Below are positions 1 to 40,041 of a stretch of DNA of 64,000 bases, piece by piece. The position numbers and the translations under genes were made by a program. Position 1 is the stretch's first letter; the number at the start of each line of letters is the position of its first letter. The notes under the pieces were generated by a model. It saw only the letters and a program-made list of their open reading frames with translations, did not search any database and had not been told where the DNA came from. This stretch comes from an uncultured Candidatus Saccharibacteria bacterium (GTDB lineage Bacteria > Patescibacteriota > Minisyncoccia > Phycocordibacterales > PALSA-1337): contig CAYOER010000001.1 of assembly GCA_964403205.1 (NCBI GenBank), forward strand, positions 14,037 through 78,036. Reading direction: 5' to 3'.

Positions 1-1988
1 TACCTTTTGAAGATAATGGGTATGTATATACTTCTGTGGATGCCGGAGTATCTTGGACAAGACGAGATAGTGCAGGACAGCGTGCTTGGACAGTTATTAC
101 TTCATCATCAGACGGTATGAGATTGGCTGCTGGTAGCTATGATAATATTAATAATCCTAGTGGATACATATATACGTCTGCAGATGGCGGAGCAACATGG
201 ATACAGAGAACAGGAGTGGGATATCGTTCATGGTCATCTCTTTCTTCATCAGCCGATGGTATGAGATTGGCTGCTGGTGAGTGGGGTGTTGGTGGAAATA
301 TATATATATCTTCAGATGGTGGAGTGACTTGGGTACCGAGTTTAGGGTTAGAAAGTAATCATTCTTGGGCAGATATTGCTTCATCGAATGATGGTATGAA
401 ATTAGCAACTAATAGTTATGGTGGAAACATATATACTTCCACTGACGGTGGTTTATCATGGATACATAGATTTAATACTGGAGGTATTACATTACATTCA
501 ATTGCATCATCAGCTGATGGTATAAAGCTCATTGCAGGAGACCTTTATCATAATTATGTATCTATAGATAGTGGAATATCATGGATAATACAAGATCTTC
601 CTGTACCAGCTGTTTGGTGGAATTCATTTTCAGTATCTGATGATGGTACACGATTTGTAGCATCTGTAGATGGTGGATATATATATACTAGTTATACAGC
701 TATTCCTTCATCAACTTTTGACTACTCTCTCTCTAATGGTGGTAACAGATATATAACTCCAGGAAGTACAGTTACAAATCCTATAACTGCAAATCTAGTA
801 TCAGGTACAACACAACCAATCAATCTGTATATTTCAAGTATAAAAAATAGTTCAAATGTAGAAGTATTCAATCAAGTAAATGGTATCGGTACAACATCGA
901 GTGCCTTAACAATAAATCCTGTAACACCTACTCAATCAAGCACACTCACTCTCTCTGCAACCGCTGGAGTACCTGCTGGAGTGTATACAGTGAATGTAAA
1001 TGGTATAGGAGATGGAGTAGCTCGCTCAACAAGCTTTACCGTAACTGTAGAATCATATAACCTAACTCTCGAAGATGGTAATACAGGAAATGGTGGTGGT
1101 GCAGCGGGATGTACCACTGGCTCTATTGTATTGACTTGGGATAAGGTAACTGGAATAGATCATTATAAAGTATATAGACAAGCTGGTAGTGATCCAGAGA
1201 TAGTAGTAAATGCAAATATAGCACAACCTAGCTCAGGTACTACAGTAACCTATGCAGATCAAGATCTAGCATCAGGTATATATACATATAGGGTAGAGGG
1301 CCTTCTCTCAGATAATACAATAGTAAGTAGTTCTCAACCGCAATCACACTTTGCTCCTGTAGATCCAGCTAAATGTCTATCATGTGATAATTTCACAGTA
1401 CCAGCATCTGTAATAAGTGGAGGTTCTGCAAATCTAGTATGGAATTCTACTAATGCCACTTCTTGCACTATAAAAAATGGATCTGGAACAACTCTATATT
1501 CAACTGAAGATGGAGATGAGACAATATCTAATATTACTAATCCACAGACATATAGATTATCATGTAATGGTCCAGAACCGATCGGAGAAGATAATATGTG
1601 TAGTATAAATCGTAGTCTGGTAGTAAGTGTAGAAGATACTTTCCCTCTATGGTTAAATGGAGATAGAAATGATATATCAGACAGAATAAGGGTTGGGCGA
1701 GAAATACATTTGAATTGGGAGACAACAGGTAAAGTTTCTGGAACTATAGTTCCTGATACATGTACTGGTAAAATTAAGAAAAATGGTAGTGATAGTACAA
1801 TGTCAGGATGGACAAATACAAATCTTTCTAAAGATAATATTATAAATCCTTTTGATTTAACATTGAGTGAAAGAGGGGATTATCAATTGACAGTACGATG
1901 TGATAGAGATACAGGTACATTAACAGATAGTGTTACTAGTAATCCAGTAAATATTAAGGTAACTCAAAGTACAATACAAGAAAGATAA
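1..1988 (+). CDS. BNR/Asp-box repeat surface protein with C-terminal Ig-like/fibronectin-like regions, 5' partial (reading frame is open to the window edge)
   Basis: Repeated S-x-D-x-G-x-(T/S)-W motifs (YIYTSADGGATW, IYISSDGGVTW, IYTSTDGGLSW and others) every ~45 aa. The frame upstream of the track start (nt 3-35) still encodes a repeat (YVYTSVDAGVSW) with no stop. The C-terminal half is Thr/Ser/Asn-rich and beta-rich. Confidence 0.6.
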   Translation, partial: PFEDNGYVYTSVDAGVSWTRRDSAGQRAWTVITSSSDGMRLAAGSYDNINNPSGYIYTSADGGATWIQRTGVGYRSWSSLSSSADGMRLAAGEWGVGGNIYISSDGGVTWVPSLGLESNHSWADIASSNDGMKLATNSYGGNIYTSTDGGLSWIHRFNTGGITLHSIASSADGIKLIAGDLYHNYVSIDSGISWIIQDLPVPAVWWNSFSVSDDGTRFVASVDGGYIYTSYTAIPSSTFDYSLSNGGNRYITPGSTVTNPITANLVSGTTQPINLYISSIKNSSNVEVFNQVNGIGTTSSALTINPVTPTQSSTLTLSATAGVPAGVYTVNVNGIGDGVARSTSFTVTVESYNLTLEDGNTGNGGGAAGCTTGSIVLTWDKVTGIDHYKVYRQAGSDPEIVVNANIAQPSSGTTVTYADQDLASGIYTYRVEGLLSDNTIVSSSQPQSHFAPVDPAKCLSCDNFTVPASVISGGSANLVWNSTNATSCTIKNGSGTTLYSTEDGDETISNITNPQTYRLSCNGPEPIGEDNMCSINRSLVVSVEDTFPLWLNGDRNDISDRIRVGREIHLNWETTGKVSGTIVPDTCTGKIKKNGSDSTMSGWTNTNLSKDNIINPFDLTLSERGDYQLTVRCDRDTGTLTDSVTSNPVNIKVTQSTIQER

Positions 1989-10250: not shown

Positions 10251-10271
10251 TGTTTTAATGAATGTATAATA

Positions 10272-10754
10272 TTAAAGTATTTTATTAATTTCATTAAAAT
10301 AATCTTTACTTAATCTATGTCCTGTATTAGGTACAATAATATCTCCTGATTCATTTTCTTTATCACCATACATTATTGTCTGTTTATTCGCTAGATGTAT
10401 TGGATTGATATTTTTAATTATATCATTTACAAACTTTAAACCAGTTATATTTATTAGTTCTTTTATCATTTTCTTATCTTTCCAATAATAATATGGTGTC
10501 ATAGAAGCTAATATTATGTGTTTACATTCATAATTCTGTGCTATTAACCATGCCAAAACTGCACCTAATGAAAAACCGATAATTATGGCATCTTTAGATA
10601 CAGGAAAAATCTGTGATGATAGTTCTTTATTCCAATCTACATTTTTATGTACCACTTCATAGCCCTTTTTTTCAGCAATTTCTGCTAGTAGTTGATATGG
10701 TTTACGTTTACAGGTTTCTTCCCATCCTGGTATGATATATATGATTTTTTTCAT
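10272..10754 (-). CDS. small alpha/beta-hydrolase-fold serine hydrolase (GxSxG esterase-like)
   Basis: Nucleophile elbow GFSLGA and a ~160-aa alpha/beta pattern with a C-terminal His (NTGHRL). Confidence 0.5.
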   Translation of the reverse strand: MKKIIYIIPGWEETCKRKPYQLLAEIAEKKGYEVVHKNVDWNKELSSQIFPVSKDAIIIGFSLGAVLAWLIAQNYECKHIILASMTPYYYWKDKKMIKELINITGLKFVNDIIKNINPIHLANKQTIMYGDKENESGDIIVPNTGHRLSKDYFNEINKIL

Positions 10755-10832
10755 AATGATTATTAATACTTTAAATAAAATAAAGAACGGGTAGAGATTT
10801 GTCGTCCTACCCGTTCACACCTTCTTTGGCGC

Positions 10833-11072
10833 CTAATTGAATTCACCGCCTTTGACGCCATTGACGAACGCTTTCCATTCGTCATGGCTAAAGAACAATG
10901 TCCGCTTTCTGCGGTCTTTGCTATCTCGGACAGCAACGCCCTCGAGCTTGGTCGCAACCAACACGCAGGTCTTCGGATTGTTTTTTGACCAGGAAGATTT
11001 GGTAAAATCCTGATCATCGACATCGAAACGACCATCATTTTCTGCACTGGTAGTGGAGTTTTTCTTTTTCAT
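10833..11072 (-). CDS. DUF397-domain protein (an actinobacterial-type small domain), solitary, in a G+C-rich islet
   Basis: FTKSSWSKNNPKTCVLVA...VAVRDSKDRRKRTLFFSHDEWKAFVNGVKGGEFN matches the DUF397 pattern (KSS-S..CVEVA ... VRDSKDP.GP.L.F....W.AF...VK.G.FD). Local G+C is around 50% against a backbone of about 30%. Confidence 0.65.
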   Translation of the reverse strand: MKKKNSTTSAENDGRFDVDDQDFTKSSWSKNNPKTCVLVATKLEGVAVRDSKDRRKRTLFFSHDEWKAFVNGVKGGEFN

Positions 11073-11223
11073 TCTATCTAGCTGTTTGTGTTGTTAGGTT
11101 GAGTCACCATGACTCATCTATAAATATTATATCCTAATAATTAAACATTCGTCAATATAATGAATGTTTAGACGAGTTGTGGTATTGAAAATAAGTGGAG
11201 AAGGGGGTAGGATAGAATAATAT

Positions 11224-11715
11224 ATGAAAATAACTGAGTTTTATAAAGGATACAGTCAAACAGAATATATTCTTGAATATCATGATGCGGATAATTTCGA
11301 TAATCTTGAATATGATAAATGTAAACAGTCTTATGGAATATGTTTCTATAATGGATTACTTGTTATTGGATTTGGTGGTAAAAAGAAAACATGGGGGCCA
11401 ATAGGTGGCACTATTGAGAAGGGAGAAACTTATGAAGAGACATTAATACGTGAAGTAAAAGAAGAATCAAATATGAAAGTTCTTTCCTATAAACCTATTG
11501 GTTATCAAAAGGTAATTGATGTTAAGGAAAATAGCTTTATATATCAGCTTAGATATGCATGTATTGTAGAACCATTTGGACCATTTATATCTGATCCAGC
11601 TATGGGAGTGAGTGAAATAAAACTTATTAATCCAAATGAATATAAAAAGTATTTTGATTGGAGACAGATTGGAGATCGACTTATAGATAGGGCTAGGGGG
11701 ATAATGAAAGTTTGA
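11224..11715 (+). CDS. NUDIX hydrolase
   Basis: Nudix box GGTIEKGETYEETLIREVKEESN (G-x5-E-x7-REVxEE). Confidence 0.7.
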   Translation: MKITEFYKGYSQTEYILEYHDADNFDNLEYDKCKQSYGICFYNGLLVIGFGGKKKTWGPIGGTIEKGETYEETLIREVKEESNMKVLSYKPIGYQKVIDVKENSFIYQLRYACIVEPFGPFISDPAMGVSEIKLINPNEYKKYFDWRQIGDRLIDRARGIMKV

Positions 11716-11743
11716 TATTTGTATATTTGCTGTCTTTTAATTA

Positions 11744-11782
11744 AAAACCCCCACAGCGATTAGAACGCTTGTGGGGGGTTTT
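11744..11782. terminator. rho-independent terminator (probably bidirectional)
   Basis: cccccacagcg-attagaa-cgcttgtgggggg followed by tttt; an A-run precedes it on the + strand. Confidence 0.7.
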
Positions 11783-11800
11783 AGACTGAAGCACTACGCT

Positions 11801-12080: not shown

Positions 12081-12533
12081 TCACCTATTGACAATCTCGT
12101 CAACTACTTGTTTAACATCGTTACCATCTGCTTTACCTTTTAGCTCTTTCATTAGCATACCTATGAATTGCCCCACTTTTGTCTTATCTATTGCTCCTGT
12201 TTTCTTTATCTTTTCTTTTACAATTTTTTCTATTTCCTTTTTACTCATTGTGGCTGGTAGGAATTCTTCTAGAATTTTCAACTCCAATTTTTCTTGTTTT
12301 GCTAGATCATCTCTGCCACCTTTTTCGAATTGCTCAATAGAATCTTTTCTTTGCTTTACACTCCTTTTTATAAGAGTTATAACATCTTCATCTTTAAGTA
12401 ATGGATCATTTATACCTTTTGCAATTAATTCATTGCTAAAAAGAGCTTGGAGTCCACGTAGAACCTCTAGACGTACACTATCTCTAGCACGCATTGCTTC
12501 TTTTGTTTGGTTTTTTATATTTTCATGCATCAT
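12081..12533 (-). CDS. yqeY: GatB/YqeY-domain protein
   Basis: Whole-length similarity to the YqeY pattern (NIKNQTKEAMRARD..RLEVLRGL...IKRSVKQRKDSIEQF...ELKILEEFLP). Confidence 0.7.
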   Translation of the reverse strand: MMHENIKNQTKEAMRARDSVRLEVLRGLQALFSNELIAKGINDPLLKDEDVITLIKRSVKQRKDSIEQFEKGGRDDLAKQEKLELKILEEFLPATMSKKEIEKIVKEKIKKTGAIDKTKVGQFIGMLMKELKGKADGNDVKQVVDEIVNR

Positions 12534-12541
12534 ATTTATAT

Positions 12542-12589
12542 TGGTTTTATATTATTATTTTTGCTATATTATAGCATATGGAAATATTA
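12542..12589 (+). repeat. copy A of a ~48-bp direct repeat (tggttttatatt..ttg[c/a]tatattatagcatATGgaaatatta) immediately upstream of the glycan cluster
   Basis: An identical 25-mer, tatattatagcatatggaaatatta, at 12565-12589 and 19663-19687; the flanking ~20 nt are also near-identical. It contains a -10-like tatatt/tattat and ends in ATG GAA ATA TTA. Confidence 0.7.
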
Positions 12590-12660
12590 AATAAATCATT
12601 ATTAATATATTTAATAGAAACATATTGTTGTTCAAATGATAACATATACTATAAGTAATT

Positions 12661-13428
12661 ATGCAGACTCAATCTTCAGACAACTCGCTTCAGGAAATCA
12701 TCAATACACTATCGAAAAACAATAATGTCGATGCTTTGCTTTTGTGCGGTTCGACTGCGACAGAAACACAAACAAAAAGTAGTGATTATGATCTAGTCTT
12801 AGTCGTAAAGGAAAAACCTGAAAAGTTATTGTCGTTATTTACATATATAAATGCCATGCCTGCTGATATATTTTTTTACTCATTAACTGATATAAAGAAT
12901 ATTATCTTAAATAAGCAGGTAAAAGAAGGTGGTGAGACATGGCTTATGCACTGGCTTTTAAAAGGAAAAATTTCATTTGATAAATCTGGAGATTTGACAA
13001 AGTTACAGAGTATAATCTCAGAAATTCAATTTCCACCAGATATTTTTGCAGGAGCATCTGCTTACAAGATCAATTATAATTTGATCAATAATACTAGATA
13101 TTTTGAATCAAACGATCCATTATATCATTTATCTCTTGAGATTCGATTGTTATATTCCATTACCGAGACCCTAGTCGGATATTTCTCAATGCGCCATATT
13201 TATTGGGAAGGTGAGAAGAAAGCGATTCAATATTTAGAAAATAATGATTCTGAATATCTTTCAATTTTTCAAAAGACTATTAGAGCATCTAATCTACAGG
13301 ATAAATTCGCAACCTATCGAGATCTTGTGGAGAAATCTTTTACGAGTGAATATCCAAAATGGGACAAAAATGTTGTTGTGAGTATCGAGGGTGATTTTGG
13401 ATCATTTTGGAAGAAAATATTATATTAA
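12661..13428 (+). CDS. nucleotidyltransferase-fold protein (ANT/KNTase-like minimal NTase with a helical C-domain)
   Basis: LLCGSTATETQTKSSDYDLVLVV (GS-x10-DxD). Confidence 0.5.
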   Translation: MQTQSSDNSLQEIINTLSKNNNVDALLLCGSTATETQTKSSDYDLVLVVKEKPEKLLSLFTYINAMPADIFFYSLTDIKNIILNKQVKEGGETWLMHWLLKGKISFDKSGDLTKLQSIISEIQFPPDIFAGASAYKINYNLINNTRYFESNDPLYHLSLEIRLLYSITETLVGYFSMRHIYWEGEKKAIQYLENNDSEYLSIFQKTIRASNLQDKFATYRDLVEKSFTSEYPKWDKNVVVSIEGDFGSFWKKILY

Positions 13429-13432
13429 TAAT

Positions 13433-14713
13433 ATGGAAAAACATTTAGTGATAGCGACATATGATGGAATTGGTACGTATTATTCAGGGGTAGGTACTAT
13501 TGCAAAAAATATTGTAAATGCTCTTGATGGATTATCTAATGATTTGAAACTTAGAGTTAGTATTGCGTATGTGAATGTAGATAAAGAATCTAGAGTATTC
13601 AATAAACAATGTTTCGATTTGGCTTCAAAATTAGTTTCTAAAACTGATGGATATATGATACCGCTATGCAATACGACTAAAGGTCAAAGTGAATGGGATA
13701 TGTGGAGGAGTTTTGATGAGTGGAATTATACTTGTGTCTCATTGGTTACTTCTCTGAATTTGATTTTGAATCCGAATGATGAAAATTATATTATCCTAAA
13801 TGATACCCCGTTTTTATTTTTTGCTAAATATAGAGAGTTAATAAATGATAAAAATGCTAAATATTTTTATTTTCCATTAAGTACCGGTAAGAATCATGCT
13901 TTTGGAAATCAAGACTGGAGAAATAACCGTATTAAAGCAGAACAGAAATGTTTCGACTTGGTCTTAAAAGACCGCAACTCGAAAGTTATTGCTTTAGGGG
14001 AAAGGTTTGCGAAAAGATTGTCCAATGACTACGGGTTATCTTTTGAGGATGATGATTTTTTGCGTAATGGTCTATGTTTCGATAAATATTCGGATTTTTT
14101 AGACAAGGCATTTACGAATCAAGATTTAAAGAAGTTTGGTATAGAGATTGAAAAAGACAAAAAATTAATTTTTGCTTGGGGCCGTTGTTCTGTTGCAAAA
14201 GGTTTTAAAGAACTTGCAATAGCGTGGGTGAAAGTACACGAACAATTACCTAATCACTATCTTATTTTACAGATGCCGAATAATTCTGGTGAGTCGGATT
14301 ACTTTAGAGTGGTTCAGGATATCCTAGCAAAGACCTCGAGGTATGTGATTATAGATGATTTTAATCCAGAAATTTGGAAGACAATACTAAGGACAAAAAC
14401 TACTGATATGGTATGTGTACCCTCAATTATGGATCCATTTCCACACACATCGATTGAAGCAAAACTTTTTTCGGATGGTATGAACTATATAACCATCATT
14501 AGTGATGTGGATGGTGCCGTTGACGCCTTTAATGCTAATGAGGCTATCTATGTTGACCCGAGAAACTCAGGGTTATTCGTAGAAAAAATATTTGAAATTG
14601 CTAATATGAATTCTGAACAGAGGAGGAGAATTATAGACAGAAATAAGGAAACCATTAACAAGTTTAATTTTTCTAAAACTTTTGAAAACTTTATCAGGGT
14701 AAATATTCTATAA
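13433..14713 (+). CDS. GT-B glycosyltransferase (GT4-like)
   Basis: The C-terminal VCVPSIMDPFPHTSIEAKLFSDGMNYITI resembles the GT4 E-x7-E / PS..E.FG...EA motif region; ~430 aa with two Rossmann-like halves. The start is set at MEKHLVIATYDG. Confidence 0.45.
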   Translation: MEKHLVIATYDGIGTYYSGVGTIAKNIVNALDGLSNDLKLRVSIAYVNVDKESRVFNKQCFDLASKLVSKTDGYMIPLCNTTKGQSEWDMWRSFDEWNYTCVSLVTSLNLILNPNDENYIILNDTPFLFFAKYRELINDKNAKYFYFPLSTGKNHAFGNQDWRNNRIKAEQKCFDLVLKDRNSKVIALGERFAKRLSNDYGLSFEDDDFLRNGLCFDKYSDFLDKAFTNQDLKKFGIEIEKDKKLIFAWGRCSVAKGFKELAIAWVKVHEQLPNHYLILQMPNNSGESDYFRVVQDILAKTSRYVIIDDFNPEIWKTILRTKTTDMVCVPSIMDPFPHTSIEAKLFSDGMNYITIISDVDGAVDAFNANEAIYVDPRNSGLFVEKIFEIANMNSEQRRRIIDRNKETINKFNFSKTFENFIRVNIL

Positions 14714-14731
14714 TCTAAAATTATAAATAAG

Positions 14732-15502
14732 ATGATATTTAGATGGTCAATTTGGGGTAATAATAAATCAAAAAATCTTGAGTTGTTAAGGTATAGCATT
14801 CTTTCCTTTAGGAAACAATTTGGTGAAAATCATAGCTATTTATTATATACAGATTCTTCAGGAGAATTGGCGAATGAGTTTAGTAATATTGTTCAGGTAT
14901 TAGATTTCAATTCTACTAATAAAGACATATATAATATACAATCCAAAGCTACTTGGATGAAATGGTGTCCGACAGCAAGAATCGATATTAGTCAAACAGA
15001 ATTTTATGTAGACTCAGATGTGTTTCTCCTCAAATATCCAGTAGAAGTTGACGAATTTCTAAATAATTTAAAAATGAAGTTTGGGATTATGGATGAGTAT
15101 TACGGTCAATCTTGGCAACATGGTGCCATGCAAAGAAAATCATATAGTGATACGCCATTTGCAAATGCCGGTTTCTTTGTTCAAAAAGCAGGTTTCAGTA
15201 TTTCCGAGGATTTATTAAGAGAGTTAGATTGGTGGAAGAAAAATATACCAGAAGATCAACAAACACACCACGATGAACAGGGGGCTTTAGCTATTGCGTT
15301 AACTAAGTATTTAAGAAATGATGAATTATATATTTTTCCGAAAGACAAATACATGCTAATTGGTCCAAACGAAAACAAGGATATAAAGAATCTAGAAAAT
15401 GTAACTCTGTTTCATGCGGTCTATCCAGATCACCCTGCTTTCTATAATTTTAAAAGTTTTCTCGATAAGATCTTGAGAAATAACAATGGTTTAATACAGT
15501 GA
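14732..15502 (+). CDS. putative GT-A-fold glycosyltransferase (DxD motif)
   Basis: A YVDSDVFLL DxD-type motif in a ~250-aa protein, in a glycosyltransferase neighbourhood. Confidence 0.3.
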   Translation: MIFRWSIWGNNKSKNLELLRYSILSFRKQFGENHSYLLYTDSSGELANEFSNIVQVLDFNSTNKDIYNIQSKATWMKWCPTARIDISQTEFYVDSDVFLLKYPVEVDEFLNNLKMKFGIMDEYYGQSWQHGAMQRKSYSDTPFANAGFFVQKAGFSISEDLLRELDWWKKNIPEDQQTHHDEQGALAIALTKYLRNDELYIFPKDKYMLIGPNENKDIKNLENVTLFHAVYPDHPAFYNFKSFLDKILRNNNGLIQ

Positions 15503-17220
15503 ATGACTTTATGAAAAAAATAAATAATAATAATAAAAATACGATAGCAATCCTTATGACCGTTAGAGACGAGGAATCATATATTGATTTTAATATTTCA
15601 TATCATCTTGATCTTGGCTTTGACTATATATTTATAGCTAACCATTGTTCTACTGATAACACGAATAAGATACTGGAGTCTTACAAAAATGATTCGAGAA
15701 TCATAGTGATAGAAGAAAAAGACCCTGTTTTTGATCATGCAAAGATTGCTAACAAATTACTCAACTGTGCTAACTCAAATTACAAGATAGATTGGTTCAT
15801 CTTTCTAGATGCAGATGAGTTCCTTTCAATAAAAGATAAATTCATACACGATTTTGTGAACAGGTTAGAAACCAATGGAATCCCTTACGCGACTATTGGT
15901 TGGGCAAATGCACTCTTTGACCATACGCTTACTGACTATACTTGTGCACCATCAAATCCGATAGATACGATGAAATATTACTATCCTTGGTCAGAGAGAG
16001 ATTGGCAAGAGTTTGGCCACTTTAGAAAAGCTATTGTCAAGAATCATAAGAATATGGAAATAGTTGTTGGAGGGCACTATGTAGAGACGGGGAATAACAG
16101 AGAATTCTTTGGCGAGTATCATTGGAACCCATTCATTATTCCTAGAGATGAGGCTAGATTATTGCATTTTGAATTTAGAGACAAAGCAGATGTTATATAT
16201 AAAAAATGGGAGAAACTAGCATCGTTTGAAAATGATTCCACTTCCACTCCTAGTTCACCGTGGCTTGAAAGGATACAGACCATTAGAAAATATGTTAAGG
16301 ATTTCAAAGATAATACAGAAGAGATTAACAAGAGGTGGTTTTGCGAACATAGAACATTTTGGGGGACAATAATACCCAAGAACAGGATAGTACTCGATAT
16401 CACAATGGCCGTCTGGTATCAAAAATATTTTAGGAGAAAGTTAGAAAGTGGTAAGGTAAAGTCAGTCTGCTTGATTCGTAATGGTCATCTTGGTGATGTT
16501 ATTATGTCGGAACCAATTGCGCGATTTCTATCTAATTATGTCGATAAGGTCTGTCTGGCTACAGAAGTCGAATATGCAGGATTATTATTCCATTCTTACG
16601 ACAAGATTTATAAATACAATCAAATCAATTCCGGAGAGATCGATTGTGATATGACGATCAGATTGATCTATGAGCTTAGTGACAATAAAAAATCATACAT
16701 ACAGGGATATATGGAGTCAATTGGTTTCGGAGAAATTATTAATAAAGAGATCCCTATAATTAATAGCGACTGGGATAATATTATTGGAGAGGAATATATA
16801 CTTGTAGCTCCATTCACGAGTCCTTGGGAGGAGGAGAAAAGAAATTGGGGGTATAATAAGTTTGTTGAACTATCGAAATTATTAGAATCTGAATATAAGG
16901 TTAAATGTATAATCTTAGAGAAACACCATTCATTCAAGGAAATGATGTCTCTCATTAAACATTGTAAATTTATTGTTGGAAACGATTCTGCTCCCACGAT
17001 AATTGCTCAGAGCCTTAAGAAACAGTCTTTTATCGTTTTTGGGGCTACTCTGCCAGATTATATACATATGTTAGAATGTACTGTACCTATTTATGATAAG
17101 AATAGACATAAACTTTGCAAACATAAATCAAGACAGGAAGAGATAGATTGTTGCGAAGAGTTTTGTATGGATAGGGTAAGAGTTAGTGATGTCTTTAATC
17201 AGATTAAATCAAACATATGA
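15499..17220 (+). CDS. bifunctional glycosyltransferase: N-terminal GT2/GT-A domain fused to a C-terminal GT9 (heptosyltransferase-like) domain
   Basis: N-terminal IAILMTVRDEESYI...FIANHCSTDNT and FLDADEF (DxD). The C-terminal half begins LIRNGHLGDVIMSEPIARFL, like the GT9 R-x-GA-x-GD-x-L-x-P motif. Confidence 0.5.
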   Translation: MNDFMKKINNNNKNTIAILMTVRDEESYIDFNISYHLDLGFDYIFIANHCSTDNTNKILESYKNDSRIIVIEEKDPVFDHAKIANKLLNCANSNYKIDWFIFLDADEFLSIKDKFIHDFVNRLETNGIPYATIGWANALFDHTLTDYTCAPSNPIDTMKYYYPWSERDWQEFGHFRKAIVKNHKNMEIVVGGHYVETGNNREFFGEYHWNPFIIPRDEARLLHFEFRDKADVIYKKWEKLASFENDSTSTPSSPWLERIQTIRKYVKDFKDNTEEINKRWFCEHRTFWGTIIPKNRIVLDITMAVWYQKYFRRKLESGKVKSVCLIRNGHLGDVIMSEPIARFLSNYVDKVCLATEVEYAGLLFHSYDKIYKYNQINSGEIDCDMTIRLIYELSDNKKSYIQGYMESIGFGEIINKEIPIINSDWDNIIGEEYILVAPFTSPWEEEKRNWGYNKFVELSKLLESEYKVKCIILEKHHSFKEMMSLIKHCKFIVGNDSAPTIIAQSLKKQSFIVFGATLPDYIHMLECTVPIYDKNRHKLCKHKSRQEEIDCCEEFCMDRVRVSDVFNQIKSNI

Positions 17221-18251
17221 ATGAACAGAAACTAGAAATTAAATTATCGTTTATAACTGGCCTTAAGGATATTGTCTTAGACGAAATAAGTAAACAAGTT
17301 AATTTTCAGGTTCTTCGTGAATATGGAGATTCTTTATACCTTAGTTATGTGGAGGATCTTAGTATTATTAAACGTCTTAGAAGTGTTGCTAGGGCTTATG
17401 TGATAGTTCATGATCCTAAATATAACCCCCTTTATATTTTCAACCACAAATCTATTTTAGGAAGCCTTGTTAAAACAGTAATTGATAATAAAGGTCAAGA
17501 CACCTTTAAGACATTTAAAGTAACATGTGCTGGTTCTGATTCTAAAGAAGTTAATGATATCAATCGATATCTAAATAATACATATGACTTGATTGAAAAA
17601 GAGGAAGCGGATATTAAGATACATATAATTAAATTGGAAGATATCTGGGAGGTAGGTGTTCAAATTACCTCAAAGCCTCTATCTGTTAGGGATTATAAGA
17701 TTAAAAATATGAGAGGAGCCATGGACCCGACCATAGCATACGCAGTTAATTCCTTATGCGGATTAGATAAGGCAAATTCCTATCTGAATGTTTTTTCTGG
17801 AAGTGCAACTCTGCTTATCGAGGCGGCTCAGTGTTATTCTAAGCTGGAGACCTTAGTAGGTTTTGATAATAATAAAAAACATATTTCTCTGGCTATACAA
17901 AATATAAAGAAGGCCGGATTGATAAAAAAGATACAACTCAAGGAAATTGATATATTTGACAAACCAAACACCGGAAAATTTGATGCAATTACATCAGATT
18001 TACCTTTTGGTATGTCTATATCTAAAAATGAGGATTTGGGGAAATTATATAGACAGTTTGTTGAATATTGTCAGGACGTTTTAACTCCCTATGGTAATAT
18101 GGTTGTTTATACGAGCGAATACGAGATTTTTGGAAAAGCTCTTCTTGGATCAGAATTTAGGATTATAAAACAACTAGAGCTTAGATTTATTACTTCAGTA
18201 AATGCATATCTTCGTCCAAAAATCTTTGTATGCGAGTTAAGGCAAAACTAG
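17217..18251 (+). CDS. SAM-dependent methyltransferase of the THUMP-associated/UPF0020 (m2G/m6A, DPPY-type) family
   Basis: Motif I NVFSGSATLLIEAA (compare DPMCGSGT.LIEAA) and motif IV ITSDLPFG (a DPPYG variant). Confidence 0.5.
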   Translation: MNEQKLEIKLSFITGLKDIVLDEISKQVNFQVLREYGDSLYLSYVEDLSIIKRLRSVARAYVIVHDPKYNPLYIFNHKSILGSLVKTVIDNKGQDTFKTFKVTCAGSDSKEVNDINRYLNNTYDLIEKEEADIKIHIIKLEDIWEVGVQITSKPLSVRDYKIKNMRGAMDPTIAYAVNSLCGLDKANSYLNVFSGSATLLIEAAQCYSKLETLVGFDNNKKHISLAIQNIKKAGLIKKIQLKEIDIFDKPNTGKFDAITSDLPFGMSISKNEDLGKLYRQFVEYCQDVLTPYGNMVVYTSEYEIFGKALLGSEFRIIKQLELRFITSVNAYLRPKIFVCELRQN

Positions 18252-18282
18252 ACCGAAAGTCATTTCGCACAATTATATAATC

Positions 18283-19041
18283 ATGAAAGAGTTTGACTTA
18301 AAGAAATATATAAGGAAATACAAAAATGCCAATGTCGATTTCCTTCGATTTCCCGGTAATTATGGGGATTCTCTTATTTGGCACGGAACAAAGAAACTTT
18401 TATTATCTCTAAATATTTCGGAGCATTGTGTAGATATTTTCTCACCAAAATATAATGATGTGCTGTTTATTGATGGTGGCGGTAATCTCGTTGACCATTA
18501 TTCTGATATTAGGAATTTCCTGATTAAAAAACCAGCTTTGTATAAAGAGGTTGTTGTACTTCCACATACAATATTTGGTGAAAAACAGGTGGAAATTCTG
18601 AATAATGTCTCAAGCAAATTGACAATCTTTTGTCGGGAGAAAATTTCTGCAAAATTCTTAGAGGATAAACTAATACAAGCCGAAATATATCTGTGGCATG
18701 ACTGTGCGTTTTATAATAAGTTTGTTCAGGTACCTGAGGGAAATCGTGTTATGAATGTATTTCGTTCAGATATCGAATCATTATTAAACATACAGCCGGA
18801 GTCTAATAATGATTTATCGTGTAATGGATATGCCACTAAACCGCTTGATGAGTTAATCGAGATTTTACAAAAATGTGTACAAGTTAATACCGATAGATTG
18901 CATATAGCTATTGCTGCAACATTATTAGGGAAGAAGGTGAAGCTATTTCCTAATTCATATTATAAGAACAAGGCAGTTTTTGAATATTCTCTCAAGAAGT
19001 TTTCTAATGTAAATTTCATCGAGGATTTTAATGATCAATAA
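18283..19041 (+). CDS. polysaccharide pyruvyl transferase-like protein
   Basis: The N-terminal FPGNYGDSLIWHGTKKLL and FIDGGGNL resemble the PS_pyruv_trans G-x-x-GNxGD / GGG pattern. Confidence 0.4.
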   Translation: MKEFDLKKYIRKYKNANVDFLRFPGNYGDSLIWHGTKKLLLSLNISEHCVDIFSPKYNDVLFIDGGGNLVDHYSDIRNFLIKKPALYKEVVVLPHTIFGEKQVEILNNVSSKLTIFCREKISAKFLEDKLIQAEIYLWHDCAFYNKFVQVPEGNRVMNVFRSDIESLLNIQPESNNDLSCNGYATKPLDELIEILQKCVQVNTDRLHIAIAATLLGKKVKLFPNSYYKNKAVFEYSLKKFSNVNFIEDFNDQ

Positions 19042-19621
19042 TATGTATAATTTAAAGGTAATATCGAATATATTCTCAGATGTTCTCGGTGGTATATCAA
19101 CCAATTTTGAATCTAGGGATCAGTTAAGTCAACTGGTAAGATTGAATATGGAAACAAATTTAGAACTATGGGGTCTTGAAGATTCAGCAAGGATGACAGA
19201 GCTTGGTTCGGATCATGTAGCTAAGACTAAGCAGGAAATCGATAAAAATAATCAAATCAGAAATGATCTGATAAGAGAGATGGATATCGAGATTGCAAAA
19301 CAAATAGATATTTCACATAGCTTTCAAGAACAGTTTTATAGTGAAAGCCCAGGCATGATCATCGATAGACTTTCAATCATGTTTATTAAACTGGCAGTTA
19401 TTCATAGTTTATTGCTGGTGATTAAAGAGAAGGATTTACAGGAAGAGTATAAAGAAAAAGAAAATATAATGCTAAAGCAGATAGATCTTGTCGGTCAATT
19501 TTTAGATGCTTATTTTGCAAAACTTGAGCGCAAGGAGATTTTCTATGAAGTTCAACCAGCAATAAAGATTTATAATGATGAAAGGATTAGAAAATATATT
19601 AAAAATCAACACAATATATAA
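19031..19621 (+). CDS. DUF4254-like protein (a family often next to GT9 heptosyltransferases)
   Basis: LELWGLEDSAR ... KQEIDKNNQIRNDLIREMD resembles the DUF4254 W-H-L-ED..R ... KRRID.SNQ.R.DLVE.ID pattern (from memory). Confidence 0.4.
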   Translation: MINNMYNLKVISNIFSDVLGGISTNFESRDQLSQLVRLNMETNLELWGLEDSARMTELGSDHVAKTKQEIDKNNQIRNDLIREMDIEIAKQIDISHSFQEQFYSESPGMIIDRLSIMFIKLAVIHSLLLVIKEKDLQEEYKEKENIMLKQIDLVGQFLDAYFAKLERKEIFYEVQPAIKIYNDERIRKYIKNQHNI

Positions 19622-19640
19622 CTTAAATCATTCAGTATCA

Positions 19641-19687
19641 TGGTTTTATATTGTTATATTTGATATATTATAGCATATGGAAATATT
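19641..19687 (+). repeat. copy B of the ~48-bp direct repeat, overlapping the rmuC start codon
   Basis: See copy A; a 25/25 identity core. Confidence 0.7.
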
Positions 19688-20729
19688 ACTCATAATACTA
19701 ATAGTACTTGTAATCATCGCTATCTTTACCATGTTTATGGTATTTTCTCGTAAATCAAAGCCAATAGAGAAAGACGATACTGGTTTCAAACTTATTCTAG
19801 AACAGATAAATGAGCTCAATAGAACAGTAGATAAGAAAATGGGTGAAAGTAATAAAGATATGAGTACGGCATTACATCGTCAATTCAGCGAATCACAGAA
19901 ATTGATTCGTGATATTACAGAGGAGGTGACTCAGGTAAAGGAAATAGGTAAGCAGAGTTTATCTATTACTGAACAATTGAGAGAATTGCAAGATATTCTA
20001 AAGAATCCTAAACAGAGAGGAATACTAGGTGAATATTATCTAGAGACTTTATTGAAAAATATCCTAGCACCTAATCAATATAAAATGCAATACGCCTTTA
20101 CAAATGGAGAAATAGTAGATGCAGTAGTCTTTGTAAAAGATAAAATAATACCGATTGATTCTAAATTCTCTTTAGAAAATTATAATAAATTAGTAGAAGA
20201 AAAAAATCCAATAGAAAAAGAGAAATTGGAGAAGAGCTTTGTCAATGATTTGAAAAATCGTATACAAGAAACAGCAAAATATATAAGACCTAGTGAGGGA
20301 ACAATGGAATTTGCCTTTATGTTTATTCCACATGAAGCAATATATTATGATCTTCTAATAAATAAAATCGGCGCAATAACCGAAGAAACAGATAATCTCA
20401 TACAGCGCGCGGCAGGGAAGTATAAAGTCATAATAGTATCTCCAACATCTTTTCTTGCATATTTACAGACAGTCTTACAAGGTTTGAAAGCAATGCAAAT
20501 AGAAGAAACAGCAAAGGATATAATAAAAAGGGTGGATGAACTTGGAACTCATCTTAAAAGATATGAAGAATACCATTCGAAGCTCGGTTCATCGCTCGGA
20601 ACTGTTATAAATCATTATAATAATTCTGGAAAAGAATTGAAGAAAGTAGATAGAGATATTCTACGTATAACAGGGGATTCTCCAGGACTAGATACGAAAA
20701 CTGTTGACCAGCCAGAAGAGATAGTGTAG
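19677..20729 (+). CDS. rmuC: DNA recombination protein RmuC
   Basis: An N-terminal TM helix, a long coiled coil, and a C-terminal RmuC nuclease-like region (TMEFAFMFIPHEAIYYDL). Confidence 0.75.
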   Translation: MEILLIILIVLVIIAIFTMFMVFSRKSKPIEKDDTGFKLILEQINELNRTVDKKMGESNKDMSTALHRQFSESQKLIRDITEEVTQVKEIGKQSLSITEQLRELQDILKNPKQRGILGEYYLETLLKNILAPNQYKMQYAFTNGEIVDAVVFVKDKIIPIDSKFSLENYNKLVEEKNPIEKEKLEKSFVNDLKNRIQETAKYIRPSEGTMEFAFMFIPHEAIYYDLLINKIGAITEETDNLIQRAAGKYKVIIVSPTSFLAYLQTVLQGLKAMQIEETAKDIIKRVDELGTHLKRYEEYHSKLGSSLGTVINHYNNSGKELKKVDRDILRITGDSPGLDTKTVDQPEEIV

Positions 20730-21584: not shown

Positions 21585-22187
21585 CTAAACCCCCTCTCTA
21601 TTCTTCAACGCATTCTTTATAGTCTCACTATCAGAATATTCCAATTCACTTCCGGTAGATAGACCTTTCCCGAGCACTGATACTTTAATATTCTGATTAA
21701 TATCACTTATTATTTTCTTTAAAAAGACTATAGTATTTTCACCTTCAGCATTTACATTTAATGATAGGATTATCTCATTTAATTTATTCTTATTTATTCT
21801 TTCTTTTAATTCTTTCAATCTAATCTTTTTTTCTGGTCCTTTATCAAGAATGGGAATAATTCCTCCAAGAATAAAGTATAAACCATTATAAACTTTACTT
21901 TTTTCTATTGATTCAAAATCTACATCTCTGGAGACTATCATGAGTTGATCGGTTTTTCTATTTTTATCTGAACAAATAGGACATAGGGTAGATTTCCCAT
22001 CTGGGTAGAAACGGAAGCAAGATGAGCATATTCTTATACTTTTCTTAATATCCAATATTAATCTTGCGATATCTTCTAGATATGCGACATTCCTAGTCAA
22101 AAGGAAATATACGAAGCGTCTAGCTTGTCTCGGACCGATGCCGGGGAATTCGCGGAAGTATTCTGTTAATTTAGAAATCGGATCCAT
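21585..22187 (-). CDS. recR: recombination protein RecR
   Basis: HhH N-terminus (FPGIGPRQARRFVYFLL), a C4 zinc finger (CSSC...CPIC) and a Toprim region. Confidence 0.9.
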   Translation of the reverse strand: MDPISKLTEYFREFPGIGPRQARRFVYFLLTRNVAYLEDIARLILDIKKSIRICSSCFRFYPDGKSTLCPICSDKNRKTDQLMIVSRDVDFESIEKSKVYNGLYFILGGIIPILDKGPEKKIRLKELKERINKNKLNEIILSLNVNAEGENTIVFLKKIISDINQNIKVSVLGKGLSTGSELEYSDSETIKNALKNREGV

Positions 22188-24867
22188 TATTTCCTGTATT
22201 ATCTATACCCTTATCGAAATCTCCGAAATCACTTTTATCAACAGTGATAAATGTCGTTTTCTTCTCATCGAAGAATAATTCTACTGTACCAGTTGGACCA
22301 TTCCTATGTTTCTCTATCATTATTTTCGCAATATTCGGCTTCGCACTGTCTTTATTATATTTATCTTCTCTGTGTATGAACATTACAACATCTGCATCTT
22401 GCTCGATGCTATTATGTACAATGAAATCATTAGCAAGGAAATTATGATAATTAGGTACAGTAGCATCGAAGACCTCTTCTATACCATTTGATTTTATAGA
22501 TATTATCTCATCCCAATATATATCTGATTCTGCAATATGCAATAATACATCACTTGAAAGAGCAGTAGCGACTGTAGTTAGGCGTTCTCTAGATATACCT
22601 GTAGACATAAGAGCAGTGCCATTGTATGAGACTTTCATACCTTCCGAGAGATCTCTCCATGACATATCTGCCTTATCTTTCTCTGTTTCAATAAGTGATT
22701 TCCATATTTCTTTAGGAATAGTATCTGTATTTGGATTCGAAACTATATTATTTAATTTTTCTTTCAAATCATTTACTATTTTTCCTCTTTCACCGAAGGA
22801 TCCTATTAATTCTAGGAATTTGATTTGCACAGGAGCACTTTGTATATGTATTTGATATATTGGACGATATTTATTTTGTAAAACTTTTTTAATATTACTC
22901 CATATACCTAATTTCAATAGAAGATGTTGTACTCCTGAAGCAAGTTCTTCACTTGTGGATGCATAATATATAGAAGCACTAGGTTTTCTATCTTCTAGAA
23001 TTTTCCATGAAATATTACCATCTGTAGCCCATAGATGATGTAAAAATAGGCATATTTGTTGCTCACCAATCTCGAAAAATGAATTTGGAATTTTCTTTTC
23101 ATATGATCTTACAGGTTTTATACCTAATCTTTCAAACCAGATTGTTATTGGATGCTTTTTACCTCTTGCTAATCTATATGGAGAAGGAAGATATATATGC
23201 CACCAATTTTCTTGTTTTATCCTACGAGCTTCTATTCTAAATAATGATTTTGCTGTTTCTTCTACTATTGCTAGATTCTCTTTATCTGCACTTGTATAAT
23301 GAATCGGTTGTTTTGGTAATACACAACCATCACCGAGAAGATGTGCTAGTAATATAATTTCATTATTATCTATTTTCTTTACTTTTTCTGTTTCAGGTAT
23401 AAAGCGAGGTAATGCTATTCTCATCTCTCCCTTCAATTCGTCTAGTCTTTTCCATCCTGATAGTGTGAAAAATTTATGATTTGAGGAGGCTTTTATTATC
23501 CTTCCACTTCTCGTCTGCATAGAGAATATTTCTTTTTTACCGCTTGGAAATATCTTTGTTGCTAGGGTATTTATAATTTTATACTTTTCATCAATTGCGA
23601 ATACTGGTACATTTTCATGTCCTACTAAATCTTTTATACAGATTCTTTCACCGGTATCTGCTCTTATTATTTTTGTATCACCAGTAAGACATCCAGAATC
23701 GCGTAAATCAGACAATCTCGGCTCACCACCTCTCTGCTCTACTGCACGGGAAAGCTGGGAAAGAGCGAGTACAGGAACTTCTAGCTCTCTTGCCATTTGT
23801 TTCAATGATCTAGAGATTTCTGTAACCTGTTGAACCATATTGTCACTATGGCGTGCCTGTGTAGGCACCATGAGCTGTAGATAGTCTACGACTATTAGCC
23901 CGAGTCCTTTTTCACTTTTCAATCTTCTAGCAACTGCACGCATTTTCAAAATATTATTTGCTGGCTGATCATCTATATATATCGGTGCATTGGAAAGTCT
24001 ATCCATAGCATCACGAATAGCTTTGAAATCATGATCAATAGATAGATTATGTCCTGTTCTTAATTTCCATGCATCAACCTGAGACTCTGCGGCGAGCATC
24101 CTATCTACTAGCTGTTGCGAGCTCATTTCAAGAGAAAATATACCAACAGGAATATTGTGATCTATTGCAGTTTTCCTAGCAATATCTAGCGCTAGGGAAG
24201 TCTTACCCATAGAAGGTCTAGCTGCGAGAATAATTAAGTCGGATTTTTGTAATCCTGCAAGTTTATTATCTAATCCAGAGAAGCCAGTAGGGATACCACG
24301 TAGTTCACCCTTTGTATTATGAAGTCTATCAATTCTCTCCCATGCTTCAGAAAGAGTGTCCTTCAAAGCTATGAATTTATGTGTACCGGTAAAATTGGTA
24401 ACTTCGAATATTTTCTTTTCTGCTTTATCTAGTAGCTCATCTAGTTCTCCCGCTTCATCGAAACCGAGCTCGCCGACATATTCTGATGCATTGATCAGAT
24501 CTCGCATAATATGTTTTTTCTGTACTATTTCTGCATAGTACTTTGCATTCGTAGAAGAGGGAACACCATTTACAAGTTCAGAAAGATAGCTCATCTCTCC
24601 TGCTTGTTCTAATATATCTTTTTCTTTTAATCTCGATGATAAAGATAGAAGATCAATAGGTGTGCCTTTATTATGTAATTCCATCATAGTCGCCCAGATC
24701 AGCTTATGCCTATCAGAATAGAAAGATCTATCAAATATAATATCAGTAATATCGTGCATCACTTCTGGGCGAATCATAATAGATCCGAGAAGTGCTTTCT
24801 CTGCCTCGATACTCTGCGGAGGAATGCGTAAATCTTTTGCTTTGAAATATGGTGAAGTCGAGCTCAT
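22171..24867 (-). CDS. dnaB: replicative DNA helicase DnaB interrupted by a 427-aa intein (898-aa precursor)
   Basis: DnaB N-domain (IEAEKALLGSIM); Walker A ARPSMGKTSLALDIA; the RecA-like core resumes after the intein with SIEQDADVVMFIHRED. Confidence 0.9.
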   Translation of the reverse strand: MSSTSPYFKAKDLRIPPQSIEAEKALLGSIMIRPEVMHDITDIIFDRSFYSDRHKLIWATMMELHNKGTPIDLLSLSSRLKEKDILEQAGEMSYLSELVNGVPSSTNAKYYAEIVQKKHIMRDLINASEYVGELGFDEAGELDELLDKAEKKIFEVTNFTGTHKFIALKDTLSEAWERIDRLHNTKGELRGIPTGFSGLDNKLAGLQKSDLIILAARPSMGKTSLALDIARKTAIDHNIPVGIFSLEMSSQQLVDRMLAAESQVDAWKLRTGHNLSIDHDFKAIRDAMDRLSNAPIYIDDQPANNILKMRAVARRLKSEKGLGLIVVDYLQLMVPTQARHSDNMVQQVTEISRSLKQMARELEVPVLALSQLSRAVEQRGGEPRLSDLRDSGCLTGDTKIIRADTGERICIKDLVGHENVPVFAIDEKYKIINTLATKIFPSGKKEIFSMQTRSGRIIKASSNHKFFTLSGWKRLDELKGEMRIALPRFIPETEKVKKIDNNEIILLAHLLGDGCVLPKQPIHYTSADKENLAIVEETAKSLFRIEARRIKQENWWHIYLPSPYRLARGKKHPITIWFERLGIKPVRSYEKKIPNSFFEIGEQQICLFLHHLWATDGNISWKILEDRKPSASIYYASTSEELASGVQHLLLKLGIWSNIKKVLQNKYRPIYQIHIQSAPVQIKFLELIGSFGERGKIVNDLKEKLNNIVSNPNTDTIPKEIWKSLIETEKDKADMSWRDLSEGMKVSYNGTALMSTGISRERLTTVATALSSDVLLHIAESDIYWDEIISIKSNGIEEVFDATVPNYHNFLANDFIVHNSIEQDADVVMFIHREDKYNKDSAKPNIAKIMIEKHRNGPTGTVELFFDEKKTTFITVDKSDFGDFDKGIDNTGNNGSDF
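22411..23691 (-). mobile_element. DnaB intein with a LAGLIDADG homing-endonuclease domain
   Basis: Begins with Cys (LRDSG|CLTGDTKI) and ends with His-Asn before the Ser+1 extein residue (FIVHN|SIEQDAD). Two LAGLIDADG-type motifs (LLAHLLGDGCV and LFLHHLWATDGNIS). The insertion follows the conserved RDSG of DnaB. Confidence 0.85.
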
Positions 24868-39264: not shown

Positions 39265-40041
39265 TTAATTATATCTTGGTACACCTACATTCTTTGTTTC
39301 CATCTGTATATCTCCGAAATTGCTATTCTGTTCTACATAGATAGTTCCCTGCTTTACAAGCTCAAGCATTGCGAGAAAGCCCACAATAACATTTATCTTT
39401 TCACCCTTATGATTATTAGCAAAATCTTTGAAACTCATTTTGAGCCCTACTGTTATACGTTTCGTCAGATTATCTATCATTTCTTCTAGACTAATTACTT
39501 TTCTTACTATTGCTTTTGGTATATTTTCTTTTTTAGGCAGACTATTGATTATATCTTTTATACTTTTTGCTAGAGATAATAGATTCATACTTTCATGAGG
39601 AGAAAAGATCGGCTCAATATTTCTTGCCTGTGATTGAGAAAATATTACTTCTTTACAGAATATCTCTTTTATATTGAGACTTGCTTCTTTTATTCTCTTA
39701 TATATTTTCAAACGTATTTCTAGATCATGGACATCCACCTCTTCTTCTTCTGTAAGAGATAGAGTAGGTAGGAGTGATCTGGACTTTATAAGTAGAAGAG
39801 TAGAGGCAATGAGTATGAATTGGGCACTTTCTCCTATCGGTAATTTATCAAATTGTTCTATATGATGTATATAATCATCTGTAACCTTTGCCAGAGAAAT
39901 ATCATTAATAAAAAATTTGCGCTTTTCTATTAGTGACAATAGTAGATCTAGAGGTCCTTCGAAGACTTCGGTTTTGATTTTGAATTTTATATCTGGAACT
40001 ATCTTTTCTGCTTTTATAGCTTCTATGGAGGAGTTATCCAT
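39265..40041 (-). CDS. scpA: segregation and condensation protein A
   Basis: FEGPLDLLLSLIEKRKFFINDISLAKVTDDYI is the ScpA N-terminus. Confidence 0.85.
   Translation of the reverse strand: MDNSSIEAIKAEKIVPDIKFKIKTEVFEGPLDLLLSLIEKRKFFINDISLAKVTDDYIHHIEQFDKLPIGESAQFILIASTLLLIKSRSLLPTLSLTEEEEVDVHDLEIRLKIYKRIKEASLNIKEIFCKEVIFSQSQARNIEPIFSPHESMNLLSLAKSIKDIINSLPKKENIPKAIVRKVISLEEMIDNLTKRITVGLKMSFKDFANNHKGEKINVIVGFLAMLELVKQGTIYVEQNSNFGDIQMETKNVGVPRYN

Follow-up and report, generated by a model that had tools for sequence, protein, structure and literature searches.

How did a seven-gene glycan cluster come to lie between the divergent genes yqeY and rmuC, and why is it bracketed by two almost identical copies of a short sequence that contains the start of rmuC? 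The arrangement is found in a 64,000-nucleotide stretch of contig CAYOER010000001.1 (GenBank assembly GCA_964403205.1, positions 14,037 to 78,036), here called the window, from an uncultured bacterium deposited as Candidatus Saccharibacteria. Its RmuC homologues place the window in the Patescibacteria/Parcubacteria, near Taylorbacteria (groundwater). We consider it quite likely that the repeat is a lineage-internal duplication of ~54 bp comprising the bidirectional yqeY-rmuC promoter, and that its two copies bracket a relocated glycan block of ~7 kb. The feature is an ordinary genome-rearrangement scar, left by known kinds of events, and not a new kind of element.

The repeat and its origin in the yqeY-rmuC spacer

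The repeat consists of two direct copies of 48 nt each, copy A at 12542-12589 and copy B at 19641-19688, which are identical at 45 of 48 positions. All three mismatches (A/G, T/A and C/A, copy A versus copy B) fall in the left 23 nt, while the right core, TATATTATAGCATATGGAAATATTA, is identical over 25 of 25 positions. A first-pass annotation, made from the letters of the sequence, had described a ~48-bp direct repeat with such a core. The repeat is real, as both shuffling and repeat ranking confirm, and the annotated coordinates hold for copy A; the end of copy B had been placed one base short, at 19687. With up to three mismatches allowed, the 25-mer core occurs in the 64-kb window as copies A and B and nowhere else, none of 100 dinucleotide-preserving shuffles of the window produced a match, and the A/B pair is the top-ranked two-copy direct repeat of the window. 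Local alignment of the yqeY-proximal with the rmuC-proximal flank gave a score of 81, compared with a shuffle maximum of 35 (z = 16.8). The same annotation had correctly located the rmuC start codon inside copy B (ATG 19677; the product matches Pfam RmuC with E = 8.6e-51) and the 26-codon open reading frame (ORF) that begins in copy A (12578-12658, MEILNKSLL...). The two junctions are composed as follows, NTase standing for the nucleotidyltransferase gene at the head of the cluster.

12081-12533, minus strand: yqeY (150 aa), the left resident gene, with its putative promoter within copy A; Pfam YqeY, E = 8.3e-42
12534-12542, no strand: insertion of 9 nt, ATTTATATT, that separates the yqeY start codon from GGTTTT and is seen on the copy A side alone
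12542-12589, plus strand: copy A, the yqeY-proximal copy of the native intergenic region (putative promoter) with the first 12 nt of rmuC
12578-12658, plus strand: 26-codon stub ORF, which begins with the duplicated rmuC start as codons 1-4 (MEIL) and is otherwise unrelated; its stop lies 2 nt ahead of the NTase ATG at 12661
12590-12619, no strand: 30-nt filler that separates the duplication from the NTase upstream region
12620-12660, plus strand: NTase upstream region, 41 nt, ...AAATGATAACAT.(A)AGTATAA.TAATT-ATG
19635-19641, minus strand: yqeY stub GTATCAT, which opens an 11-codon dead-end ORF running from 19641 down to 19606
19641-19688, plus strand: copy B, the rmuC-proximal promoter copy (putative), including the rmuC start
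19677-20729, plus strand: rmuC (350 aa), the right resident gene, with a predicted leaderless mRNA; Pfam RmuC

The source of the repeat becomes apparent from related genomes, of which one per species was scanned by RmuC alignment, yielding 80 loci. In ~60 of the 80, yqeY (minus strand) and rmuC (plus strand) are divergent direct neighbours, with a spacer of 17-55 nt in ~20 loci and of up to ~200 nt in roughly a dozen more. None of the seven cluster genes was found near rmuC in any of the 80 loci, so that the comparison of the yqeY/rmuC junction across relatives, which the first-pass annotation had proposed, returns empty sites as the rule. The closest syntenic relatives are L087 (RmuC 80% identical) and L181 (76%), which have in common with the window the gene order HisKA, hyp79, yqeY / rmuC, L21, RecR, DnaB, CysS, CorA and onwards; YqeY of L087 is 87% identical to that of the window. 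In both relatives yqeY and rmuC are separated by a 35-nt spacer, catGGTTTTATATTGTTATTTTTGCTATATTATATCATatg, with no cluster between the genes, and the repeat sequence is present in one copy, catGGTTTTATATTGTTATTTTTGCTATATTATATCATatggaaatactt. By alignment, the repeat is the resident yqeY-rmuC intergenic region, which is single in L087 and L181 and occurs twice in the window. This single, unduplicated copy in the two relatives supports the earlier reading of an insertion into the promoter and 5′ end of rmuC with duplication of the target.

We aligned both copies with the corresponding regions of L087 and L181, from the GG to rmuC +12. The two relatives show no difference over 47 positions, compared with a DNA difference of 13% in their yqeY and rmuC genes, and the spacer is therefore under stronger constraint than the genes it separates. 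Copy A differs from the single-copy region of the relatives at 4 of 47 positions and copy B at 5 of 47. Three derived bases are common to copies A and B, as judged against the identical outgroups; one substitution and the 9-nt insertion beside the yqeY start are private to copy A, and two substitutions to copy B. In this alignment ATTTATATT is absent from copy B, L087 and L181. The three shared derived bases argue that the copies are paralogues made within the lineage of the window, and that the promoter was not imported. On these very small numbers, the duplication would fall within about the final third of the branch that leads from the split with L087 and L181 to the window.

The extent of the duplication follows from its two ends. 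To the left of copy B, GTATCAT (19635-19641) corresponds to the yqeY start codon and codon 2, as in the outgroups, and to the right the identity between the copies ends at rmuC +12; the duplicated unit thus comprises ~54 bp of ancestral sequence, from yqeY +7 to rmuC +12. Longer units were considered and discarded. Beyond rmuC +12, an apparent echo of rmuC codons 5-13 follows copy A, with 14 of 26 identities (P ~0.005 against random window segments); it is not significant with composition-matched shuffles, which gave P = 0.05-0.11. To the left of the yqeY stub the signal is weak too, with P = 0.03 against L087 and P = 0.45 against yqeY of the window itself, and was not accepted. In L178, L179 and L176, NTase genes with ~80% identity stand in unrelated contexts and are preceded by sequence homologous to 12620-12660, which indicates that this segment arrived together with the NTase gene.

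The predicted promoter and the expected consequences of its duplication

Each copy of the repeat contains a short palindrome.

12562-12576, no strand: 15-bp palindrome TGCTATAtTATAGCA of copy A, read as two overlapping, opposed extended −10 boxes
19661-19675, no strand: palindrome TGATATAtTATAGCA of copy B, with C>A at the 'n' of the plus-strand TGn

On the plus strand the copy A palindrome reads TGC-TATATT, followed by 7 nt to the ATG at 12578, and on the minus strand TGC-TATAAT, directed at yqeY. The minus-strand box of copy B, TGCTATAAT, is intact. The palindrome region would constitute a compact, pseudo-symmetric bidirectional promoter, with predicted start sites at ~12577/8 on the plus strand and ~12560/1 on the minus strand in copy A, and at 19676/7 (plus) and 19659/60 (minus) in copy B; the yqeY mRNA would then have a 5′ untranslated region of ~18-27 nt.

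For rmuC, the relatives allow a comparison of the upstream regions. In the window, the gene is preceded by TATATT-N7-ATG. A hexamer with at least five of six matches to TATAAT ends 5-8 nt before the ATG in 39 of 62 distinct rmuC upstream regions from relatives, and 28 of these 39 boxes are TGn-extended. Over the 62 regions, two distances between the TATAAT-like hexamer and the start codon stand out sharply, 6 nt with 24 cases and 7 nt with 13. From this conserved spacing we infer that the rmuC mRNA is leaderless throughout the clade. Actinobacteria, Deinococcus and archaea are known to have leaderless genes whose −10 box lies 6-7 nt ahead of the start codon. The rmuC genes resemble these in that most relatives have a TATAAT-like box at the same distance from the ATG, with no Shine-Dalgarno sequence, and differ from them in that the host is a Patescibacteria lineage and that leaderless status is predicted; a literature search found no published description of leaderless genes in Patescibacteria.

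Comparable promoters have been described. In pseudo-symmetric bidirectional bacterial promoters (Warman et al. 2021, summarised in PMC10268837 and PMC12825309), the −7T and −11A bases pair reciprocally and the starts lie ~18 bp apart (PMC10268837). As in the promoters described there, the −10 elements of the window overlap on opposite strands in the near-palindrome TGCTATAtTATAGCA. The plus strand can also be read as TATTAT (12567-12572), which places −11A and −7T reciprocally to the minus-strand TATAAT; the predicted divergent starts are ~16-18 bp apart, and both sides would lead to mRNAs (yqeY and rmuC). Compared with these promoters, the one in the window is predicted from sequence and conservation in an uncultured Parcubacterium, both of its sides are TGn-extended, and one side is positioned for a leaderless mRNA. 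The duplication of the entire unit is what is novel with respect to those descriptions.

The layout recurs elsewhere in the window. TGnTATAAT (or TACAAT) is found 6-9 nt before the ATG of many operon-first genes, for example upstream of 39265-40041(−), 57137(+), 62062(+), 36403-37554(−), 22171-24867(−), 6090(+) and 8460(+), and there are few Shine-Dalgarno-like motifs, which gives the impression of a genome that is for the most part leaderless or Shine-Dalgarno-independent. A generic sigma-70 scan of the window returned 48 promoter-like sites where 48 are expected, and is uninformative in such AT-rich DNA.

What would an insertion do to this promoter? Because the −10 boxes overlap inside the 35-nt spacer, any insertion would be expected to cut one gene from its promoter, and as no insertion point spares both promoters, it is a promoter-duplicating rearrangement alone that would keep both yqeY and rmuC expressed. 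We propose that a ~7-kb block, made up of the NTase gene and an operon from a family 4 glycosyltransferase (GT4) gene to a DUF4254 gene, came between yqeY and rmuC, in the simplest case by a single insertion at rmuC +12 with a target duplication of 54 bp. Copy A would serve yqeY and would also fire rightward, via the 26-codon stub ORF, into the cluster. Copy B would serve rmuC and is probably also the source of a short antisense transcript that reaches into the end of the DUF4254 gene. Selection presumably keeps both copies intact, and as to the physical mechanism, direct insertion with target duplication appears simplest. In the gap between the DUF4254 gene and rmuC, a generic scan, itself uninformative in AT-rich DNA, gave no terminator-like site, and read-through from the cluster into rmuC is therefore possible.

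The case illustrates a wiring problem of streamlined genomes: where two genes share a palindromic promoter of 35 nt, the placing of an operon between them would require a second copy of the promoter. The block of high identity between copies and relatives marks the likely functional unit, from about −37 to +12, and the comparisons suggest that leaderless mRNAs with extended −10 promoters are the norm in this Parcubacteria clade. Current concepts are unchanged by the locus; its value is that of an annotated case with predicted start sites.

The glycan block and possible routes to its present position

The block contains seven genes. The gene calls of the first-pass annotation are confirmed by Pfam in all cases except one, a 256-aa ORF that had been called 'GT-A'. 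No cluster protein has an NCBIfam match above cutoff.

12661-13428, plus strand: NTase, Polbeta-type, 255 aa, the first gene of the inserted block; Pfam Polbeta/NTP_transf_2
13433-14713, plus strand: GT4, the first gene of the conserved operon in metagenome loci; Pfam Glycos_transf_1
14732-15502, plus strand: orf256 (256 aa), conserved at this operon position with 58-71% identity; no Pfam or NCBIfam match
15511-17220, plus strand: fusion of a family 2 glycosyltransferase (GT2) with a family 9, heptosyltransferase-like one (GT9); Pfam
17217-18251, plus strand: UPF0020/RMKL-like S-adenosylmethionine (SAM) methyltransferase; Pfam, E = 8.7e-26
18283-19041, plus strand: polysaccharide pyruvyl transferase; Pfam PS_pyruv_trans, E = 3.2e-17
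19031-19621, plus strand: DUF4254 protein, the last gene, which is also terminal in the conserved operon; Pfam, E = 2e-23

The set from GT4 to DUF4254 is a conserved Parcubacteria operon that stands elsewhere in other genomes. The GT2/GT9 fusion has 179 homologues with 61-86% identity, nearly all from Parcubacteria, and the order GT4, orf256, GT2/GT9, UPF0020, pyruvyl transferase, DUF4254 is kept in ~80 metagenome loci with varied neighbourhoods, some of which have an extra carbamoyltransferase or other gene. In none of these ~80 loci does the operon lie between yqeY and rmuC; in L145 it is located 1.6 kb past the 3′ end of yqeY, in another orientation. The NTase gene is normally found outside the operon, its ~80%-identical homologues adjoining radical-SAM/PNP genes or sitting in defence islands. 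The GC content of the 7-kb block is similar to that of its flanks.

The head of the operon is more variable. At the loci L094-L173, the GT4 occurs in two forms, ~63-77% or ~45-49% identical to that of the window, and many loci with the second form have a conserved preceding gene that ends in ...GSNDTLEIAANLASAE.IL.VNVGD. The two GT4 forms and the gene that precedes many loci of the second form indicate that the 5′ end of the operon is modular. The NTase also appears to consist of two modules, since its C-terminal half is encoded alone in L086 (3305-3727), as a standalone 140-aa protein with 60% identity to NTase residues ~121-255, 6 kb from yqeY. In P0345 (401 aa, Candidatus Paceibacterota) one protein combines an NTase of this family with a NUDIX domain, and in L176 (5811-7616) and L177 a NUDIX gene is located two genes upstream of the NTase gene, which hints at a functional link between the two. 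The NUDIX domains of P0345 and L176 were considered as orthologues of a NUDIX protein of the window (see below); the similarity is confined to the surroundings of the Nudix box, and orthology is not established.

That NUDIX gene belongs to a second lineage-specific block, on the far side of hyp79-yqeY.

10251-11800: hyp160 (minus strand), orf91 (minus strand) and NUDIX (plus strand)

In L087 these three genes are not present between the ABC gene and hyp79. L181 also lacks the ABC gene, and the interval between HisKA and hyp79 is variable. Orthologues of the NUDIX protein (46-61% identity) are encoded upstream of the glycan operon in L091/92, L136, L137, L142 and L149, directly preceding GT4 in all of them except L137, where the gene lies farther upstream. 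The second block may therefore have the same origin as the cluster, and it is unlikely to be coincidence that two unrelated insertions brought NUDIX and the operon to the two sides of hyp79-yqeY. Between the convergent NUDIX and hyp79-yqeY genes we also observed a G+C-rich hairpin flanked by A/T runs (11748-11782, AAAAACCCCCACAGCG...CGCTTGTGGGGGGTTTT), which resembles an intrinsic terminator acting in both directions; at 9197-9232 of L087 there is a hairpin that is analogous but not homologous.

Several points weigh against a single insertion with duplication of the promoter. As NUDIX accompanies the operon in five other lineages, a complex local rearrangement is indicated rather than one simple insertion. 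The NTase gene has its own conserved upstream region with a TGATAACAT box, so that the cluster may be independent of copy A; the needs of yqeY alone could account for the conservation of that copy. Gene conversion between the copies could mimic the pattern of shared derived bases. The promoters, start sites and leaderless status are predictions from sequence and conservation, and simple insertion mechanisms are not known to give a 54-bp target duplication without a recombinase.

Could the same native promoter have been duplicated by a different route? Tandem duplication-random loss is a kind of gene-order change best known from organelle genomes. Applied to this locus, it would start from an ancestor with contiguous hyp160, orf91, NUDIX and NTase to DUF4254 between the ABC gene and hyp79-yqeY. 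A tandem copy of the segment comprising NTase to DUF4254, hyp79, yqeY, the intergenic region and rmuC up to +12 would have arisen; the first of the two clusters and the second hyp79-yqeY pair would then have disappeared, leaving the present order with a stub of rmuC after copy A and one of yqeY before copy B. In one stroke the scheme would put a cluster-type NUDIX gene immediately across hyp79-yqeY, account for the two extra blocks that flank hyp79-yqeY relative to L087, and predict both stubs where they are seen (12 nt of rmuC and 7 nt of yqeY), and it needs no recombinase. It would also fit that NTase and NUDIX adjoin in L176/L177 or are fused in P0345, the NUDIX subfamily there being not clearly that of the window. 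A change of this kind would carry a block past its neighbours without inverting it and would leave, as in the window, short stubs of genes and duplicated regulatory DNA where the segments join. On the other hand, three events are required, and neither larger pseudogene remnants nor an intermediate arrangement were found in the window or the related loci. The gap between NUDIX and hyp79 aligns to the supposedly deleted cluster copy at chance level and holds a clean terminator hairpin. The ancestral order (cluster, hyp79, yqeY, rmuC) is seen in none of ~160 related loci; L145 has the cluster near yqeY, but the orientation differs. We therefore regard this history as possible, and as clearly less probable than not.

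The relatives also show that the window is not the only lineage with additional DNA at this position. Other DNA of 0.2-3 kb separates yqeY and rmuC in ~28 of ~62 related lineages (L018, L020-L022, L024, L027, L028, L043, L045, L047, L051, L052, L054-L060, L070, L074 and L077-L081). A flanking repeat comparable to that of the window (score 81) was found in none of the 28 relatives with spacers of 0.2-3 kb. The best of the 28, L060, has a gapped 23-nt AT-rich match with a score of 27 against a shuffle maximum of 24 (z = 3.8). Promoter duplication as a general trait of insertions at this position was accordingly rejected, no relative coming near a score of 81. The yqeY-rmuC spacer is a recurrent site of gene gain, and the promoter duplication is peculiar to the lineage of the window. 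A far-reaching reading would be that operons move into bidirectional promoters by an unrecognised recombinase-independent or trans-mobilised process, with staggered breaks at the edges of the promoter complex. If so, the 54-bp duplication (about −35 to +12 of the rmuC promoter) would be the signature of this movement, and the palindromic promoter would also act as a hot spot of recombination, a role that would account for the varied inserts in the ~28 of ~62 lineages; we give such a process little credence.

The locus also invites comparison with mobile elements, and the first-pass annotation had suggested an att-like recombination site. In this reading, the copies would be the attL and attR sites of a site-specific cassette that carries a promoter and the 5′ end of rmuC and thereby restores its target gene. 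Transposon target-site duplications are 2-14 bp long, and tRNA-targeting islands restore the 3′ end of the tRNA. As with target-site duplications and att repeats, direct repeats derived from the target, here of ~50 bp, flank a block of variable presence between genomes, and as with tRNA-targeting islands, rmuC is intact since the proximal copy supplies its 5′ end and promoter. To the left of the core, copy B resembles the outgroups, including the yqeY start, as an attP from a related genome would. The remaining observations run the other way. The duplication of 54 bp is far above the range of transposon target-site duplications, and the cargo is, unlike that of integrative islands, a housekeeping-like operon that the clade conserves. 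The seven genes take up nearly all of 12661-19621, and Pfam detects no integrase, transposase or tyrosine or serine recombinase, nor a remnant of one, among them. Scans for terminal inverted repeats within each end region (12480-12700 and 19560-19760, the two ends not being scanned against each other) gave short AT-rich matches, and inspection of the inner ends (12590-12625 and 19600-19640) revealed no matching terminal pair. Rfam and tRNA scans of the window were empty, and there is thus no tRNA-type att target. A 24-mer of the repeat is found, among 180 loci, solely in contigs of the window's own strain, and a degenerate 45-mer has no match in viral contigs. The operon appears to be inherited vertically, with 61-79% identity over the ~80 metagenome loci, a divergence comparable to that of RmuC, and both copies carry lineage-specific derived bases. 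The glycan block is not a mobile element, and attachment sites of a former cassette are an improbable origin of the repeat.

The first-pass annotation had alternatively suggested a portable or generic promoter module. A generic promoter motif, placed before two transcription units with no link to an insertion, would agree with the TGnTATAAT-N6-7-ATG layout that is general in the window and the clade. This layout accounts for just ~12 of the 48 positions, and no third copy exists in the 64 kb (up to three mismatches) or in the 180 loci, where no other promoter carries the repeat. Copy A includes the first four codons of rmuC and copy B the start codon of yqeY, which are gene fragments, and the relatives carry the sequence once, precisely between yqeY and rmuC, as the resident spacer. 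A generic motif is therefore highly improbable. Finally, although the sequences are metagenome-assembled and contain an internal repeat, a chimeric join at this repeat is very unlikely and can practically be dismissed, because a separately recorded ENA contig of 14.4 kb carries the complete yqeY-to-rmuC structure at 100% identity and three more metagenome contigs carry the yqeY/copy A/NTase junction (99.7-100% identity), the exact repeat of 25 bp is much shorter than the k-mers in the names of those contigs (k141 and k127), and the copies differ at three positions and in their flanks.

Further features of the window

Two observations concern other parts of the window. In L087 and L181 DnaB has 469 aa, whereas that of the window (22171-24867, minus strand) has 898 aa. 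An intein that includes a LAGLIDADG homing-endonuclease domain interrupts its DnaB_C domain and makes up the additional ~420 residues (Pfam Intein_splicing, E = 4.6e-27; LAGLIDADG_3, E = 6.8e-18). At 75-413 a 60-nt direct repeat occurs in three diverged copies at intervals of 135-144 nt, the second and third being 80% and 67% identical to the first. They lie inside the first long ORF of the window (117-1988), which looks like a gene for a repeat-domain protein.

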